A program made the position numbers and the translations under genes. From a virus (Duplodnaviria; Heunggongvirae; Uroviricota; Caudoviricetes), in IMG/VR virus record IMGVR_UViG_648276662_000013: DNA of 6,185 bases; one strand, given 5' to 3'. Below the pieces are notes generated by a model. The model was given only the letters and a program-made list of their open reading frames with translations, did not search any database and was not told the DNA's origin. Shown piece by piece: positions 1-6,020 of the stretch (positions are counted from its first letter, which is position 1; each line of letters opens with the position of its first letter).

Positions 1-1194
1 GAGCAGATGCGTAATCTTATTACAGCATTCCCAGAAGAGTTTGAGGAAGTCCGTAAAGGGATGAGTTATGTCGATGATGCTCAAAGGGATGATTATGGCA
101 ATCTGGCGCTCAAAGCACAGGTAGCCTCATCGCTTGGTCAGGGCGCATTTGGCAGGTTCATGATGGATAATGAGCAGGAGATGCGTCGTTTAGGTATCCC
201 TCCAGAAACTATTGCGGAAATGCAGGTTAATGACCCGCAGGGCTTCCAGCATTTCGCAGGTAATCTGGCGCTGTTTTCTCTCGGTCATGAGAAGTATTTC
301 GATATCAAAGATCAAATGGAAGGTCGGGATATTGAGCGTGGCAAGTTGGCAGAGACAATCCGCAGCAATCAGGCTGGCGAAGCACTTCAGGCGAGAGGGC
401 AGGATATTAGCCGAGCAAATGCGTTAACGTCAGCATATGCACCAACAGCAGCAATGCAGAATTACAATCAGTACGCGCAAATGTTAAAGGCGGATCCAGA
501 GGGGGCGGCGGCATTTGCGGCAGCGGCTGGAATTAATACAAACGCCAAAAAATTAATGAGTGTTAGAGAAAACGATGATGGCACTGTCACAAAATACTAC
601 ACAGACGGAAGTGAAGAGCAGGGAAAACTAAACCAGCCAATATCTGGAGATGGGTTTCGTCCAATAGCTTTGCCAACAGCCCAAAAGATCATGGAAAAGT
701 CGCCAGAAGGGGCTAAAAAAGCTGCTGGATTTGCATACAGGGTTAGGGATGCTCTTGATTCAATAGATACACTGAAAGACCAGCTTAGCCCACAGCGAGT
801 GGCGATCATTAATAATGCTTTGGGTAATGGGACGCTGGCTAACTTAACGCTCAGCCCAGCAGAGCAGCAATACGTTGTTAATGCTAATGACGCAATAATG
901 GCAATACTCCGTCAGGAAACAGGGGCATCTATCCTACCAGCTGAAATGTCCAAATATTATCAAATGTATTTCCCTCAGCCTGGTGATTCCACAAAAACCA
1001 TTGATACCAAGCGCCGGAAGATGGAAAACCAGTTCAATTCGCTGAAAGCTGCTTCTGGTCGAACTTATGATGCTTTGCGGGTTATTTCAGCAGTTGACAG
1101 AGGAACTGCTTCTTCGTCGCAGACATTGCCGCAATCTGAGCAGGTATCACAGCCAGCAGCCAGCAGTAACTTTTCTTCACTATGGGGTGATTAA
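1..1194 (+). CDS. 5'-partial hypothetical protein (at least 397 aa in window), hydrophilic with no TM segment and a Ser/Gln-rich C-terminal tail; candidate phage virion/internal (DNA-ejection-type) protein, product is inference only
   Basis: Open frame runs from base 1 with no in-frame stop before the first ATG at 7, so the gene probably starts upstream of the window. Stop TAA 1192-1194 overlaps the next ATG 1194-1196 (TAATG), indicating an operon with translational coupling. ORFs 212..427(+) and 597..809(-) inside it are short shadow ORFs. Confidence 0.8.
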   Translation, partial: EQMRNLITAFPEEFEEVRKGMSYVDDAQRDDYGNLALKAQVASSLGQGAFGRFMMDNEQEMRRLGIPPETIAEMQVNDPQGFQHFAGNLALFSLGHEKYFDIKDQMEGRDIERGKLAETIRSNQAGEALQARGQDISRANALTSAYAPTAAMQNYNQYAQMLKADPEGAAAFAAAAGINTNAKKLMSVRENDDGTVTKYYTDGSEEQGKLNQPISGDGFRPIALPTAQKIMEKSPEGAKKAAGFAYRVRDALDSIDTLKDQLSPQRVAIINNALGNGTLANLTLSPAEQQYVVNANDAIMAILRQETGASILPAEMSKYYQMYFPQPGDSTKTIDTKRRKMENQFNSLKAASGRTYDALRVISAVDRGTASSSQTLPQSEQVSQPAASSNFSSLWGD

Positions 1195-3299
1195 TGGCTA
1201 AAGCATGGAAAGATGTTATCGCCTCTCCACAGTATCAGGCGTTAGCACCAGAACAAAAAGCGCAGGCTCAGGAGCAATACTTCAATGAAGTCGTGGCCCC
1301 GCAAGCCGGAGAAAGTGTAGAGCAGGCTAAGCAGGCTTTTTATGCTGCCTATCCACTACCATCAACGAATGAAATAGACCGATCCCAATCAGCAACTCAA
1401 AATATTCAACATACATCATCTGATAATTCTCTTGCGTCAGGGTATGCAAAGTTAGCTACTCAGCAAAGAGAGGGGCTTGAGCGTTCAGCAGAACAGGGAG
1501 CCAGTCTTGGGGCTGCGATGCGCGATGCTATAACAGGCGAAAGCCGAATGACTCCAGAGATGGAGAGACTGCAAAATGTCGCCTCTGCCCCAGAATTGAA
1601 CTCACTAAGCATGGATGCCCTAAAGGCTGGATGGTCTCAACTTTTCGGCTCTGACGCGTCTCAGGAAAAGATTCTTCAGGGAATGGGGGCGACATTAAGG
1701 CAGGATGAGAAGGGGAATACTATCGTTTCTCTGCCATCAGGTGATTATGCCCTGAACAAGCCGGGTTTATCACCGCAAGACCTGACCTCGTTTCTTGCTA
1801 ATGCGTTGGCGTTTACACCAGCGGGCAGGGCTGGAACGGTGCTTGGTGCCATAGGAAAATCAGCAGCTACAGATTTAGCACTACAGGGAGCCACCAGCCT
1901 TGCTGGTGGAGAAGATATTGATCCGTTACAAACGGTAATTTCTGCTGGCATTGGTGGTATTGGTAAGGGGCTGGAAAATACAGCGAGTGCGGTTTCGAGG
2001 GCTGTTCGTGGTGATATGTCGCCTGAAGCAAAGGCTGCTGTCGACTTTGCATCGGAAAGAAATCTGCCGTTAATGACCAGTGACATGCTGAAAGATAAAA
2101 CCTTTATGCAGAGTCAGGCTCAGACATTAGGCGAAAGAGTTCCTTTTTTTGGAACCGGTAAGAATCGGCTGAATCAACAACAAGCACGAGAAAATTTAGT
2201 CAGAACATTTAGCGATGGTCTGGGTGGCATTTCTGATAAACAGCTTTATGAATCTGCGACTAAAGGGCAACAAAAATTCATTGAGGCAGCAGGAAAGCGA
2301 TATAACCGCATAATTGACGCTATGGGGGATACCCCTGTCGATCTCTCAAACACGGTAAAAGCTATCGACAATCAGATTGCCGTGTTAAGCCGCCCGGGCA
2401 AATCTCAGGATAGAGCCGCGGTAAAAGTCTTGCAGCAATTTAAAGACGATATCACCAGCGGACCAAATGACCTGCGTCTGGCGAGGGAAAACAGAACCGA
2501 TCTTCGAAAGCGATTTATGGCGTCATCTGACACTGTTGATAAAGATACGCTCCAGAAAGCCAGCGATATTATCTACAAGGCATATACGGCGGATATGAAA
2601 AAAGCCGTAGCCAAAAATCTTGGAGCAGACGAAGCCATTAATATGGCAAGGGTTGATCGCTCATGGTCTAAATTCAATGACATGATGGGAAGAACGCGCG
2701 TTCAAAAGGCAATAGCCAGCGGCAAGGCCACGCCTGAGGATGTAACAAAACTCGTTTTTAGCCAAAGCCCATCAGAACGTTCTCAGCTTTACAGGCTTCT
2801 GGATGACAATGGTAGGCAAAACGCACGAGCAGCCATAGTTCAGAATGCTGTAGATAAGGCGACTGATCCGTCTGGAAATATCAGTGTTGAGAAGTTTATT
2901 AATGCGTTACACCGGAACAGGAAGCAATCAGCAACTTTCTTTAAAGGCGTACATGGAAAGGAACTGGACGGCGTTATTAAATACCTCAACGATACAAGAC
3001 ACGCGGCAAAAGCGAACGTTCAAAACTTAAATGGTCAGCAGCTTTATGGATTGTTAGTTGGTGGTGGCATCATAAACGCAGCAGTATTAGCGGGGATGCT
3101 AAAAACGGCTGCGTTTGTTGTTCCTGCTGCTGGTGCCGTAGGCGGAGCAGCGAAGGCATACGAAAGCCCTGTTATACGAAATGCCTTGTTACGTCTGGCA
3201 AATACGCCAAAAGGTAGCACAGCATATGACAGAGCGATCAGTACGGTCACACAATCGCTCACCAGAGTCGCACAGGCATCACAAAAAGAATCTCAATAA
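1194..3299 (+). CDS. 701-aa hypothetical protein: Ala/Gln-rich N-terminus, Gly/Ala-rich middle, C-terminal ~37-residue hydrophobic helical hairpin; candidate membrane-inserting virion/ejection-type protein (function not established)
   Basis: 2.1 kb ORF whose ATG overlaps the upstream stop, with a G-rich SD-like GGGGTG at 1184-1189. Hairpin LYGLLVGGGIINAAVLAGML-KT-AAFVVPAAGAVGGAA is residues 617-653, about nt 3042-3152. Stop TAA 3297-3299 is followed by a hairpin + T-run. Antisense ORFs 1745..2086, 1867..2052 and 3044..3262 are shadows. Confidence 0.85.
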   Translation: MAKAWKDVIASPQYQALAPEQKAQAQEQYFNEVVAPQAGESVEQAKQAFYAAYPLPSTNEIDRSQSATQNIQHTSSDNSLASGYAKLATQQREGLERSAEQGASLGAAMRDAITGESRMTPEMERLQNVASAPELNSLSMDALKAGWSQLFGSDASQEKILQGMGATLRQDEKGNTIVSLPSGDYALNKPGLSPQDLTSFLANALAFTPAGRAGTVLGAIGKSAATDLALQGATSLAGGEDIDPLQTVISAGIGGIGKGLENTASAVSRAVRGDMSPEAKAAVDFASERNLPLMTSDMLKDKTFMQSQAQTLGERVPFFGTGKNRLNQQQARENLVRTFSDGLGGISDKQLYESATKGQQKFIEAAGKRYNRIIDAMGDTPVDLSNTVKAIDNQIAVLSRPGKSQDRAAVKVLQQFKDDITSGPNDLRLARENRTDLRKRFMASSDTVDKDTLQKASDIIYKAYTADMKKAVAKNLGADEAINMARVDRSWSKFNDMMGRTRVQKAIASGKATPEDVTKLVFSQSPSERSQLYRLLDDNGRQNARAAIVQNAVDKATDPSGNISVEKFINALHRNRKQSATFFKGVHGKELDGVIKYLNDTRHAAKANVQNLNGQQLYGLLVGGGIINAAVLAGMLKTAAFVVPAAGAVGGAAKAYESPVIRNALLRLANTPKGSTAYDRAISTVTQSLTRVAQASQKESQ

Positions 3300-3668: not shown

Positions 3669-3783
3669 ACCAACCCTCCCTTTAGCTTTGTTTAGAATGG
3701 CAATCATCATATATCCAAGACATGGCATTTGGTACATAGCTTGGGTCGGGATTTCAAATCCGCTCCCAGTTGATGGGGCCGTT

Positions 3784-3794
3784 ACAGTACGCGC
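3784..3794. repeat. Degenerate copy (core only) of the (CG)n-core motif: ACAGTACGCGC
   Basis: Matches the core of the 3854-3877 motif, same orientation. Confidence 0.35.
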
Positions 3795-3853
3795 ATATCC
3801 GCTTTATGTGAAACAGGAAGATTTTTCTGATATCACTGCCACAGCAAAACACC

Positions 3854-3877
3854 AATTTCGTGACCAGTACGCGCGCG
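3854..3877. repeat. Copy of a ~24-bp motif AATTTCGTGACCAGTACGCGCGCG (alternating purine-pyrimidine CG core)
   Basis: Near-identical to copies at 4141-4163 and 5772-5796. Lies in non-coding DNA. Confidence 0.7.
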
Positions 3878-3885
3878 AGGGGTAT

Positions 3886-3909
3886 CAGTTGCAAAATTTT
3901 TTGCAACTG
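3886..3909. promoter_or_regulatory. Perfect 24-bp palindrome CAGTTGCAAAA-TT-TTTTGCAACTG; candidate dimeric-protein operator or cruciform/hairpin
   Basis: 11-bp arms are exact reverse complements with a 2-bp centre. Sits exactly between motif copies at 3854-3877 and 3915-3930. No U-tract after the stem, so not a canonical terminator. Confidence 0.5.
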
Positions 3910-3914
3910 CGTCC

Positions 3915-3930
3915 GACCAGTACGCACACG
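3915..3930. repeat. Partial copy of the (CG)n-core motif: GACCAGTACGCACACG
   Basis: Core GACCAGTACGC identical to the 3863-3873 part of the full copy; about 52 bp downstream of it, same orientation. Confidence 0.5.
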
Positions 3931-4140
3931 ATGGCGGGGAGCACCATAAAACTGTTCTCTACATAAGACAGAGTGGTGGTGATGTGTTGATTATCGGCGT
4001 ATATGCGCACAGGACGCGCTATGACGATGTTTTATGCGGGTACACTAATCACATGTATCTGGTGTGATAAATCGCGTTACATGACCTCTCATGTTGTGCT
4101 GGTGGTTATCACGACTTTCTGAATCTGGCCTTTGCCTGAT

Positions 4141-4163
4141 ATTTTGCGACAAGTACGCGCGCG
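4141..4163. repeat. Copy of the ~24-bp motif: ATTTTGCGACAAGTACGCGCGCG
   Basis: AAGTACGCGCGCG core plus TTT-GCGAC 5' part, same orientation as other copies. Lies about 30 bp beyond the 3' end of the minus-strand 73-aa gene. Confidence 0.7.
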
Positions 4164-4191
4164 TAGCATCGACAGCATACACATTGGATAT

Positions 4192-4413
4192 TCATTTTGT
4201 GACCAATGCGATAAGTAGCGGGATAAGAATTGATAAAATCAACAGGACGATGATCCACTTTTGATTTTCACTGGCCTTATCTCTATTTTCATCAATCTTA
4301 TCAATAATTCGACGCTCCAAGCCGTGCATATCACCGCGAATGGCAATCATCTCATTGCGAACATCCGAGAAGTGGTTGGCTTGATGTTCAATGTGTGGCG
4401 TTCTGCCTTTCAT
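4192..4413 (-). CDS. 73-aa tail-anchored membrane protein (charged N-terminal ~50 residues, single C-terminal TM WIIVLLILSILIPLLIALV); XhlA-like by recall, or possibly a small holin/toxin-like membrane effector
   Basis: Strong SD GGTGAGGA (complement of about 4422-4429) 6-7 nt upstream of ATG (complement of 4411-4413). Lies 79 bp downstream of, and co-oriented with, the RHH gene. Coiled-coil N-terminus, conserved Trp before a single C-terminal TM resembles the XhlA family (Pfam PF10779) from memory; not verified. Confidence 0.7.
   Translation of the reverse strand: MKGRTPHIEHQANHFSDVRNEMIAIRGDMHGLERRIIDKIDENRDKASENQKWIIVLLILSILIPLLIALVTK
4194..4210. repeat. Degenerate copy of the motif 5' half: ATTTTGTGACCAATGCG
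   Basis: TTTTGTGACCA matches the 5' half of the full motif. About 53 bp downstream of the 4141 copy, mirroring the ~52-bp spacing of the 3854/3915 pair. Overlaps the stop codon of the 73-aa gene. Confidence 0.35.
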
Positions 4414-4998: not shown

Positions 4999-5050
4999 CT
5001 CAAATATCAGCCAGAAAATAACGGGCCAATCACAAATCTATCGCTGTGTT

Positions 5051-5101
5051 GTTGGTTCAGAGCTGGGCTGTGTTGGTTCAAAATGAGTTGATGTTGGTTC
5101 A
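5051..5101. repeat. Three direct copies of 9-mer GTTGGTTCA at exact 21-bp phasing (iteron-like)
   Basis: Copies at 5051-5059, 5072-5080 and 5093-5101, each preceded by TGTT/GTGTT. The 21-bp spacing is two helical turns. Confidence 0.75.
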
Positions 5102-5144
5102 ATATTTTAGAAAAAACACAATAAAAACAACGCTCTTTACAAAT

Positions 5145-5171
5145 TGAACCAACTGAACCAACTGAACCAAC
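5145..5171. repeat. Three head-to-tail tandem copies of TGAACCAAC, the reverse complement of the 5051-5101 iteron
   Basis: TGAACCAAC x3 at 5145-5153, 5154-5162 and 5163-5171. Separated from the direct copies by a 43-bp AT-rich spacer (5102-5144). Overlaps the -35 region of the rightward gene. Confidence 0.75.
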
Positions 5172-5495: not shown

Positions 5496-5613
5496 TGCTC
5501 TCTCTCTGTTTTGGCAAATTCCCCCTCACTTTGAAGGGATCGGAGCTATAAAAATGGTGTTATCCGGCTTCCTCAAATTGAGGTTTCCGAAAAAATCAAT
5601 GGGTTAGGTCATC

Positions 5614-5627: not shown

Positions 5628-5771
5628 TCTGCCAGCCAACGCAATTTCTCGTTGGCGAAAATATCAGGTATTTACTGAACGAACGGTCTACCAGTCTATT
5701 CAGTTACCAGTTGCACATGGCTGTTTCATGTGAGAACGGAGGTTTTTTCGGACATCACTATTGGTTACAGC

Positions 5772-5796
5772 AATTTCACGAGCAATACGCGCGCGC
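5772..5796. repeat. Remote copy of the ~24-bp (CG)n-core motif: AATTTCACGAGCAATACGCGCGCGC
   Basis: Same orientation and same AATTTC-N-GA-N-CAATACGCGCGCG architecture as the copy at 3854-3877, about 1.9 kb away in another non-coding stretch. Preceded by hairpin CACATG-GCTGTTT-CATGTG (5714-5732) and a T6 run (5743-5748). Confidence 0.65.
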
Positions 5797-5880
5797 AGGA
5801 CAACAAGCCTGAACATGGTTACACACCTCGATCGTGAGGGATGTAGACAATGGCTTCTGGCCAAAGCACCCGAAAAAACC

Positions 5881-5902
5881 GTGTACATAAGGGTGTACAT
5901 AA
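5881..5902. repeat. Tandem direct repeat GTGTACATAA-GG-GTGTACATAA
   Basis: Two exact 10-bp copies separated by GG, each containing the palindrome TGTACA, in non-coding DNA. Confidence 0.5.
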
Positions 5903-6020
5903 TCAAAAACCGCATTAGAAATAAACCAGCTACAATGCGGCATTGAAGCCAATACTCTACAAACAGATTCAGAACATTGAATAACTCGTAACGCCAATTC
6001 TTACTTTTCAGCCTTCACAA

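Follow-up and report, generated by a model that had tools for sequence, protein, structure and literature searches.

Some PICIs contain phage pac or cos sequences, with two functional cos sites in EcCICFT073 (PMC6092414), and the PLE carries a putative mimic of the pac site of ICP1 (bioRxiv 10.1101/2024.04.22.590561). In P22, the pac site is located within the terS gene, and packaging is directed to the 3' end of this gene (PMC8575938). Here we describe a 6,185-nt stretch of DNA (the window), which makes up the right-hand end of an E. coli integrative island of ~17 kb and contains a set of short repeats, read here as fragments of terS that may mimic the pac site of helper phages.

The cos sites of EcCICFT073, SaPIbov5/SaPIbov4 and P4 resemble the proposed pac mimics in that a satellite without its own terminase bears the packaging signal of its helper in cis, and EcCICFT073 also resembles the island in having more than one copy, namely two functional ones (PMC6092414). 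However, these are sites of cohesive-end phages with a cosN nick, whereas the window contains a coding fragment of terS of headful (pac) phages, in up to four or five diverged copies whose function is putative. The putative pac mimic of the PLE (Vibrio cholerae) is a further parallel, as a short stretch identical to part of the helper pac region lies near the replication origin of the satellite (bioRxiv 10.1101/2024.04.22.590561). The two cases differ in that the pac region of ICP1 is intergenic, whereas the source of the motif described here lies inside the terS ORF; moreover, the PLE represents a single helper-satellite pair, whereas the ~25 nt of the motif recur across many bacterial families.

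The pac sites of P22 (22 bp inside gene 3) and Sf6 are asymmetric, directional signals within a small-terminase gene, and the motif would resemble them in this respect. Leavitt et al. 2013 reportedly placed the Sf6 pac site inside the part of gene 1 encoding the DNA-binding domain of TerS. The motif stems from the equivalent portion of Sf6-type terS, a likeness at the level of the gene region. P22 differs in that its gp3 has no detectable homology to Sf6-type TerS, and the idea that P22 pac and the motif are positional homologues was rejected for this reason. A candidate P22 pac site at 3817-3838 (16 of 22 bases) was also discarded, its score being borderline (P about 0.05 in simulated sequences) and the paralogue in unit C matching at 10 of 22 bases. 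Finally, in SaPIs and PICIs with a terS gene containing an internal pac site, terS-derived sequence of the satellite determines what is packaged (PMC6092414), as proposed here; their TerS is intact and expressed, whereas the island has only non-coding fragments, and searches of it gave no terS.

Terminase-derived sequences in the window

Four matches to the pattern GACCAGTACGCGCGCG (up to 3 mismatches) were found in the window, at 3862, 3915, 4148 and 5780, all on the plus strand, with 0.01 expected by chance; none of 200 shuffled windows gave four matches, and a search of the 42.9 kb surrounding the window with the same pattern found no further copies. The features of the region are as follows.

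3765..3967, plus strand: paralogous block with unit A, alignable to 5690-5891 (which holds unit C)
3784..3797, plus strand: claimed partial copy, about 10 of 12 bases matching, indistinguishable from chance
3805..3942, plus strand: terS-derived unit A, TerS profile positions 38-85, i-E 7e-6
3854..3877, plus strand: copy A, AATTTCGTGACCAGTACGCGCGCG, exact match to the pattern, (Q)FRDQYAR in the TerS frame
3888..3907, no strand: 20-bp palindrome between A and A2, GTTGCAAAATTTTTTGCAAC, seen directly in the sequence
3915..3930, plus strand: copy A2, degenerate, GACCAGTACGCACACG, SDQYAHDG, 2 mismatches to the pattern
4141..4163, plus strand: copy B, ATTTTGCGACAAGTACGCGCGCG, FCDKYARV, 1 mismatch, only the 8-codon core remaining
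4194..4210, plus strand: claimed partial copy, 4 mismatches in 16 bases, indistinguishable from chance
5768..5851, plus strand: terS-derived unit C, TerS profile positions 58-85, i-E 7e-5, with ~20 codons 3' of the motif
5772..5796, plus strand: copy C, AATTTCACGAGCAATACGCGCGCGC, QFHEQYARA, 2 mismatches, ~170 bp from the right end of the island

The common strand of the copies at 3854, 4141 and 5772 (together with 3915), noted in the original prediction, is therefore real. Of the partial copies proposed at the same time, 3915 (A2) is genuine, and those at 3784 and 4194 match roughly as well as random sequence does. The 3784 stretch stands opposite a non-motif stretch in the alignment of the A and C paralogues, and 4194..4210 overlaps the stop codon of a minus-strand gene of 73 aa; at four mismatches, five unrelated matches occur across the 43 kb locus. 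A regular spacing of 52-53 bp had been proposed for two pairs: that of A and A2 (53 bp) is kept in orthologues, and the second (B and 4194) is doubtful because the 4194 copy is itself doubtful. The blocks around A and C represent ~200 bp of diverged paralogy (local alignment score 73, versus 21 +/- 3 for shuffles).

By its sequence, the motif is the DNA for F-R-D-Q-Y-A-R-A, the most conserved stretch of the Sf6-type small terminase (TerS, PF20901). In real phages, this stretch of ~24 bp codes for TerS residues ~55-63 (F-R-D-Q/K-Y-A-R/K-A), where the DNA-binding domain ends, and in terS genes it marks the border between the DNA-binding module and the oligomerisation module. Viral contigs and genomes yielded 52 distinct coding occurrences of the motif, every one of them in a ~150-aa ORF of the form ...STVFRWL...EFxxQYARAREeQAD..., and the two such ORFs that were tested match PF20901 Sf6_terminase (E 1e-41 and 1e-46). 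P22-like phages of E. coli and Shigella carrying this type of TerS include HK620, Sf6 and HF4s.

A TerS profile built from 59 proteins detected units A and C beyond the 8-codon motif, which supports their homology to terS. Unit A is a decayed fragment of the part encoding the DNA-binding domain; it has a gap of 5 codons and lacks an intact ORF. Of copy B the motif alone remains (i-E 0.16). The presence of an intact terS (an ORF of ~140-160 aa with DNA-binding and oligomerisation domains) was rejected, as stops and frame changes surround every copy and there is no RefSeq gene. None of 50,697 phage records searched at the nucleotide level shares unit A. Shorter stretches correspond closely to known alleles: TTTCGTGACCAGTACGCG of copy A is identical in 18/18 bases to a terS allele of P22-like phages, the L240 type, and copy B matches Sf6 gene 1 (nt 165-183) in 17 of 18 bases and has the rare FCDKY variant in common with the L263-type terS allele. 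After this core, the recovered E. coli P22-like terS alleles read TACGCGAAGGCA and every island copy reads TACGCGCGCG, so that identity to known local helpers ends at 18 bases, which argues against a role of the copies as pac sites.

These findings change the meaning of several earlier observations. The copies are indeed intergenic in the window (RefSeq shows no gene over any of them) and lie in different frames, with no real ORF across them. This arrangement had been taken to speak against a protein-derived repeat, a conclusion that does not follow from it: each copy, read in its own frame, gives the same peptide (QFRDQYAREG, SDQYAHDG, FCDKYARV and QFHEQYARAG). The view of the motif as a DNA-level element is justified in so far as the copies are non-coding here, and would thus act at the DNA level, and are linked to the biology of mobile elements; it needs correction in that the motif is a fragment of the protein-coding gene terS. 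The purine-pyrimidine alternation, previously described as prone to form Z-DNA, is the codon run TAC GCG CGC GCG and is dictated by these codons. All variation among orthologues in the alternating run consists of transitions, the commonest kind of mutation, and the alternation is kept. The apparent Z-DNA-like regulatory motif is therefore terminase-gene sequence, even if its copies are inert.

The island and its variants

The island encodes a P4-type integrase, AlpA, AntA, Ash, a primase-helicase and homologues of P22 gp20 and gp16 (P22-type ejection proteins), together with cargo that includes PerC regulators and toxin-antitoxin cassettes. Searches of the island with Pfam and PHROGs detected no terS, and there were no matches to terminase or capsid genes. 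The island thus has the gene content of a satellite (an integrase and a replication module, with no capsid or terminase genes), and it looks like a parasite of P22-like phages. A literature search found nothing on this island type with ejection-protein genes. Part of the island occurs in 10% of the complete genomes of E. coli; island-bearing E. coli genomes number ~545.

Copies A, A2 and B are situated 1.8-2.1 kb from the candidate att core, and copy C ~170 bp from it; GTGTACATAA repeats adjoin both island ends. A remnant of a tRNA-Thr att site was looked for 3' of unit A and was not found. Comparison with other variants of the island revealed a breakpoint at 4172, by copy B, and others at 5760, 5771 and 5795, essentially at the edges of copy C. 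The cassettes on either side of copy C have been swapped among islands of this family and exactly 5772-5795 has been left in place, which argues against inert debris. An apparent breakpoint directly after A2 in L139, considered as a motif-mediated exchange, proved to be an insertion of the IS66 family.

Sister islands contain a version of the copy encoding FRDKY. In these islands an Ash/Icd-like gene contains a copy, read there in a different frame, which is a point against the pac reading. Moreover, in L164 (a metagenomic P22-like phage contig, IMGVR_UViG_3300045988_004969, to which L216 also belongs) A, A2 and B are found downstream of gene 16 in addition to a terS gene of its own, which would be a strange setting for a pac site if the contig is neither an assembly chimera nor a recombinant.

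Among 15 distinct orthologues, the stretch 3794-3860 is invariant, and copies A and B vary at 3 of 24 and 2 of 23 positions, respectively, compared with 12.7% in the flanks. A2 varies more (5 of 16 positions, all transitions). Over the short evolutionary range of these 15 orthologues there is no signal of purifying selection on the copies, as A and B are roughly as variable as the flanks; this also speaks against the pac reading. The same applies to a fragment of the roi gene (20 residues) in the same region, from which it follows that inert phage debris does build up there.

Isolated copies in other bacteria

The ~25-base piece is also found alone in the intergenic DNA of many other bacteria. 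A survey of one genome per species gave 105 pattern matches in total (~17 expected by chance), of which 89 were evaluable. Isolated copies account for 73 of these, and 68 of the 73 keep no more than 30 positions of the TerS profile, which argues against inert debris. Of the 89 matches found elsewhere than in TerS-like ORFs, 61 fall where there is no long open frame, although such frames cover 79% of the loci. The flanks of the isolated copies are not conserved, and no conserved gene was found downstream of them. Neighbouring ORFs most often belong to the P4-type integrase and primase-helicase domain families. Where an integrase gene is detectable nearby, the motif is downstream and co-oriented in 12 of 13 loci, and where a primase gene is detectable, in 8 of 8 (20 of 21 cases combined), the same arrangement as in the window. 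In islands of the Neisseria type, a 30-nt block with the motif is invariant amid diverged non-coding flanks and adjoins an iteron-rich region.

Possible functions of the motif

Three candidate roles were originally put forward for the repeats: an operator of a regulon under the RHH protein or PerC, promoters read by a dedicated polymerase or sigma factor, and arm-type sites of the integrase. In favour of these proposals are direct repeats in non-coding DNA close to regulators and the ~170 bp between copy C and the att core candidate; they are now largely refuted and retain hardly any probability. The motif occurs also in islands and phages without PerC or the RHH protein of the window. It is asymmetric and has no fixed distance to gene starts, here or in other genomes, which is unlike an operator; no match in a scan for sigma-70-like promoters overlaps any copy; and no copy is present in the int-proximal arm or near attL, and the GTGTACATAA repeats at both ends of the island are better candidates for arm sites. 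A terminator scan gave none at the copies, and an Rfam scan of the whole window (E <= 1) gave no match, including C4/CI antisense RNAs of P1/P4. Integron attC-type sites were rejected as well, since there is no inverted-repeat partner and the only recombinase is the P4-type tyrosine integrase.

We favour, with slightly better than even confidence, the explanation that the copies are mimics of the pac site of a helper phage, capturing the helper terminase for packaging of the island. The copies have their sequence in common with the DNA-binding-domain part of terS in P22-like phages. After induction and replication of the island, helper TerS would bind a copy as it does in its own gene and recruit the large terminase, which would cut nearby. 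Headful packaging would then proceed in the 5'-to-3' direction of the motif and, when started from copy C, cross the att junction toward int. The several diverged copies (FRDQY, FCDKY and FHEQY in the window, FRDKY in sister islands) may fit different helper terS alleles and thereby widen the helper range. Being common to many elements and phage terS genes, the motif may also serve as a short-homology recombination patch, and in the pac model this second use would explain the module boundaries at its edges.

The copies might instead be decaying leftovers of terS, from repeated recombination with phages or from a lost terS of the island, with no present function, the 8-codon core being still similar because it is the most conserved part of the ancestral genes. 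A and C are indeed recognisable as longer pseudogene fragments of terS, A2 is in decay, the copies are no less variable than their flanks among orthologues, the roi fragment represents debris building up in the same region, and the A/C paralogy reaches into arm-like sequence, a sign that two elements may have accreted. We nevertheless regard this origin without function as unlikely, though still deserving serious weight, since it leaves unexplained why about 70 intergenic sites of unrelated bacteria hold the same ~25 nt by themselves, with the rest of terS gone, why their orientation and position relative to int and primase are near-constant, why the 30-nt block is invariant in diverged Neisseria flanks, and why cassette swaps spared exactly the motif. 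In a further alternative, the motif would be kept and spread only as a short homology, at which phage Rad52-type or host recombinases shuffle adjacent modules, with no role in packaging. Of ~10 breakpoints among island variants, about four (4172, 5760, 5771 and 5795) are no more than 12 bp from an edge of the motif (about 0.7 expected), Neisseria-type flanks diverge right after the motif, and in terS it sits at a module boundary. Exchange as the sole function gives no reason, however, why the motif should face the same way and take the same place with respect to int and primase from family to family, or stay as a single copy in an element; the apparent breakpoint in L139 has another cause, and shuffling is compatible with the pac model as its side effect. 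We therefore consider it a rather improbable sole function.

It is still less probable, and in our view very much so, that the copies only interfere with the helper, harming its packaging without serving that of the island, either through minus-strand RNA of A, A2 and B antisense to the most conserved part of helper terS mRNA or as DNA decoys titrating TerS. Harm to helper packaging is common among satellites (PMC6092414), and minus-strand genes running the same way flank A, A2 and B, so that read-through transcription would yield RNA complementary to the motif. In contrast, copy C, the D copies and those of Neisseria and Pasteurellaceae are downstream or upstream of plus-strand genes in sense orientation, and the scans revealed neither a promoter nor an RNA family; a decoy for TerS on an island that replicates would, moreover, be hard to distinguish from a pac site.

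Returning to the pac mimics, a wider generalisation can be offered, more tentatively than the reading of the island itself. The ~25-nt sequence (G)AATTTNNNGAYMARTACGCGCGCG might be the core pac of the whole Sf6-type TerS family, repeatedly captured from helper terS by integrative satellites of Proteobacteria and Bacteroidota and set downstream of, and co-oriented with, the integrase-primase module, with some satellites stacking allelic versions for several helpers. In that case, the motif could serve as a sequence signature by which satellites of the pac type are found, and their helper phages predicted, in many bacterial groups. According to reviews, specific binding of pac by pac-type small terminases is hard to show in vitro (PMC9611059). 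If the motif is the recognised site, the signal of a very large TerS family would be pinned to about 25 directly testable bases, and the transfer of this cargo-bearing island by P22-like phages would be explained. In a synonymous-site profile of 60 Sf6-like terS genes, a modest local peak appears at codons 56-62, which is suggestive and confounded by mosaicism.

The palindrome at 3888..3907 has arms that are kept among the orthologues, and its two central bases vary or flip.

The motif as terS sequence

With up to three mismatches allowed, the 16-mer GACCAGTACGCGCGCG matches the window four times (at 3862, 3915, 4148 and 5780), always on the + strand, against 0.01 matches expected, and four or more matches were obtained in 0 of 200 shuffles. 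The same-orientation family of the original prediction is thereby confirmed. The partial copies that it placed at 3784 and 4194 match at the random level for that stringency, and the 42.9 kb surrounding the window contain no further copy.

Copies of the motif (coordinates include the conserved 5' extension of the GACCAGTACGCGCGCG match) and related segments
3854-3877, + strand: copy A, match with 5' extension; peptide in its own frame QFRDQYAREG
3915-3930, + strand: copy A2, degenerate, match; SDQYAHDG
4141-4163, + strand: copy B, match with 5' extension; FCDKYARV
5772-5796, + strand: copy C, match with 5' extension; QFHEQYARAG
3805-3942: unit A, longer stretch around copy A; TerS profile positions 38-85, i-E 7e-6
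5768-5851: unit C, longer stretch around copy C; TerS profile, i-E 7e-5

A scan of viral contigs with the pattern ATTTNNNGASMARTACGCRCGCG recovered 20 relatives of the island together with 56 unrelated contigs, whose GC content ranges from 36% to 66%. In nearly all of the latter the pattern is coding (...STVFRWL...EFxxQYARAREeQAD...) and lies within ORFs of ~150 residues; the two ORFs tested both matched PF20901, 'Bacteriophage Sf6 terminase small subunit-like' (E 1e-41 and 1e-46). Gene 1 of Sf6 reads ...KHEDFRDKYAKATEARAD at the motif, and 17 of 18 bases of copy B agree with its nucleotides 165-183. The terS allele of one group of enterobacterial P22-like phages (L240-type, EHQEFRDQYAKA) has TTTCGTGACCAGTACGCG in common with copy A (18/18 bases), and a second group (L263-type) encodes FCDKY, the unusual variant seen in copy B. 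This type of TerS is in use by HK620, Sf6 and HF4s. Given the coding contexts, the PF20901 matches and the allele identities, the motif is almost certainly terS sequence. The alternating '(CG)n core' is the codon run TAC GCG CGC GCG of this gene.

A TerS profile built from 59 proteins and searched against the six-frame translation of the window detected units A and C, and only the core of copy B. The segments holding A (3765-3967) and C (5690-5891) form a diverged paralogy of ~200 bp (alignment score 73, versus 21 +/- 3 for shuffled sequence), and units A and C are, as judged by sequence, derived from the DNA-binding-domain-coding part of terS. No Rfam family matched in the window, and a scan for sigma-70-like promoters found none overlapping any copy, which speaks against the suggested promoter role. 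Between copies A and A2 lies a 20-bp palindrome, GTTGCAAAATTTTTTGCAAC (3888-3907), with conserved arms and two central bases that vary by strain (TT, AA or AG, or one base deleted); between some strains the palindrome as a whole is effectively replaced by its reverse complement, being in them its own reverse complement in effect.

The host island and its variants

The window matches the chromosome of Escherichia coli MS 21-1 at 100% identity and represents the right-hand 6 kb of a ~17-kb island that has inserted between the genes yicC and dinD. Products of this island include a P4-type integrase with an Arm-DNA-bind_3 domain, AlpA, AntA, an Ash-family protein, a primase-helicase of the zinc-ribbon/Toprim/DUF5906 type, homologues of the P22 ejection proteins gp20 and gp16, PerC and small proteins of unknown function; neither a terminase nor a capsid gene was detected in it. 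Both ejection-protein homologues are full-length (gp20, Inj_translocase, E 2e-84; gp16, phrog_770; window 7-3299; 16429-20000 of L001, the locus containing the window), and satellites bringing ejection proteins of their own appear not to have been reported before. The 11-bp direct repeat CAGATTCAGAA occurs at both island junctions (window copy 5964-5974), and pairs of GTGTACATAA adjoin both ends (window 5881-5902); in L001 the two kinds of repeat lie at 5676 and 5804-5827. These are likely the att core and the integrase arm-type sites, respectively, and for the latter role, once considered for the motif, the GTGTACATAA pairs are the better candidates.

A survey of 5,426 complete E. coli genomes located the A-B segment in 545 of them and the C segment in 237; a sister island, which resides at tRNA-Thr, has a different integrase. 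Core chromosome, shared by about 4,950 of these genomes, makes up the final ~220 bases of the window, and in this strain the ISL3-family element ISEc53 is inserted just past the right junction (window 6185 onward; L001 22885-24105). The gap that separates perC from the divergent RHH-like gene contains three direct TGTTGGTTCA and three inverted TGAACCAAC repeats, which surround an AT-rich stretch of ~40 bp (5050-5171); this region resembles either an iteron-type origin of replication or a complex operator, and a breakpoint of island variants (5071) lies within it.

In the variants, the sequence to the right of B switches at 4172, 9 bases past the copy. To the left of C a 765-bp gene cassette substitutes from 5771 (in another variant, from 5760) and to the right a cassette with a Doc (death-on-curing) family toxin gene replaces the sequence from 5795, so that C survives as exactly 5772-5795 amid differing neighbours. 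A fifth context is provided by copy D of sister islands, located 3' of the stop codon and hairpin of another perC allele. Overall, about 4 of 10 variant breakpoints lie no more than 12 bp from the edge of a copy (0.7 expected); a breakpoint after A2 in L139 was discounted as an IS66-family insertion. In sister islands, the N-terminal region of an Ash/Icd-like gene also holds a motif copy of 21-23 nt, in a different frame (VYFETSTRAGKRSE).

Copies within the Ash/Icd-like gene
L161, 121-143
L155, 7349-7371
L277, 7001-7021

Isolated copies in other bacteria

A scan of one genome per species yielded 105 matches, against about 17 expected by chance, of which 89 were evaluable after 16 close to locus ends had been set aside. 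Intact TerS-like ORFs hold only 16 of the 89. The remaining 73 are isolated copies: 33 show zero TerS similarity past the motif, 35 keep at most 30 TerS profile positions and 5 keep longer fragments. In a separate tally of all 105 matches, 89 are not in TerS-like ORFs, and 61 of these lie outside any stop-free stretch of at least 120 codons, although such stretches make up 79% of the loci. The hosts include Neisseria, Conchiformibius, Pasteurellaceae, Halomonas, Pseudomonas, Brucella, Bradyrhizobium, several alphaproteobacterial and acidobacterial MAGs, and Flavobacteriia.

Flanks beyond about (G)AATTTNNNGACCARTACGCGCGCG(CG) carry zero information and no gene family recurs downstream of the copies. 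The commonest Pfam domains nearby (150 nearest ORFs, 33 loci) are DUF927, Phage_integrase with Arm-DNA-bind_3, and primase zinc-ribbon and Toprim. Where homologues of the island integrase or primase were detectable, the motif lies on the same strand and downstream in 12/13 and 8/8 cases, respectively, which is also its arrangement in the window. In Neisseria-type islands just 8 TerS codons are left, with a stop codon immediately upstream; the 30-nt block around the motif is the longest invariant run amid diverged non-coding DNA, and is followed at a distance of about 100 bp by an iteron-rich, AT-rich region. An ORF around 2707-2729 of L021 (Brucella thiophenivorans) has the TerS DNA-binding domain only (profile positions 5-70, i-E 2e-28), ends just past the motif, and may encode a stand-alone TerS DNA-binding protein of another element.

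A possible packaging signal

Leavitt et al. reportedly placed, in 2013, the Sf6 pac (packaging-initiation) signal in the DNA-binding-domain-coding part of gene 1. The 22-bp pac site of P22 sits within terS and sends packaging toward the 3' end of this gene (PMC8575938). Some PICIs have phage pac or cos sequences, EcCICFT073 even two functional cos sites (PMC6092414), and PLE has, near its own origin, a sequence mimicking the pac region of ICP1 (bioRxiv 10.1101/2024.04.22.590561). Since pac lies within terS in P22 and reportedly in Sf6, and helper signals are known in terminase-less satellites, we propose, leaning only slightly to this side, that the copies in the window act as pac mimics. TerS of a P22-like helper would bind, and cleavage would follow at, copies on replicated island DNA, which would be required in cis; headful packaging would proceed in the + direction. 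Differing allelic copies would serve differing helpers, and breakpoints at copy edges would arise as a side effect of the short homology that the copies share. Satellites that carry their helper's packaging signal are already known. What appears to be new is a putative signal consisting of a minimal fragment of terS coding sequence, the presence of several allelic copies in one island, the occurrence of the same ~25 nt alone, and with a fixed arrangement, in integrative elements from many groups of bacteria, and a host island with P22-type ejection-protein genes; no description of such an island or motif was found in the searchable literature.

Several observations argue against a packaging role. 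Among 15 distinct orthologous sequences, copies A and B (3/24 and 2/23 positions variable) are as variable as their flanks (12.7%), and A2 is more variable than A, B or the flanks. The recovered E. coli terS alleles have AAGGCA after TACGCG, where all island copies have CGCG, so the exact helper allele was not found among them. The synonymous-site profile of 60 Sf6-like terS genes has no more than a modest local peak, at codons 56-62, and sister islands have the copy in another frame inside the Ash/Icd-like gene. A metagenomic P22-like contig (IMGVR_UViG_3300045988_004969; L164/L216) has A, A2 and B located after gene 16, in addition to its own terS; its terS is 99% identical to that of Sf6 and its genes 10-7 are HK620-like, while the island gp16 gene, the small membrane-protein gene, A, A2 and B are present at 99% identity, and it may be a phage-island recombinant or a chimeric assembly. 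Inert phage debris does occur in the region: a 20-codon fragment at 5550-5609 (KNGVIRLPQIEVSEKINGLG), between perC and copy C, has 98% DNA identity to the roi/antirepressor gene of HK620 and of many lambdoid and Stx phages and is, by its sequence, a recent scrap of phage DNA. Nevertheless, we do not think that the copies are mere debris, in view of the distribution of isolated copies, the integrase/primase arrangement and the 30-nt block of Neisseria.

Positions 3817-3838 (GAAGATTTTTCTGATATCACTG), which belong to the A-B region's longest run without variation (3794-3860), match the P22 pac site (GAAGATTTATCTGAAGTCGTTA) at 16/22 positions, including 13 of the first 14, a resemblance that may be due to chance (window-wide P about 0.05).
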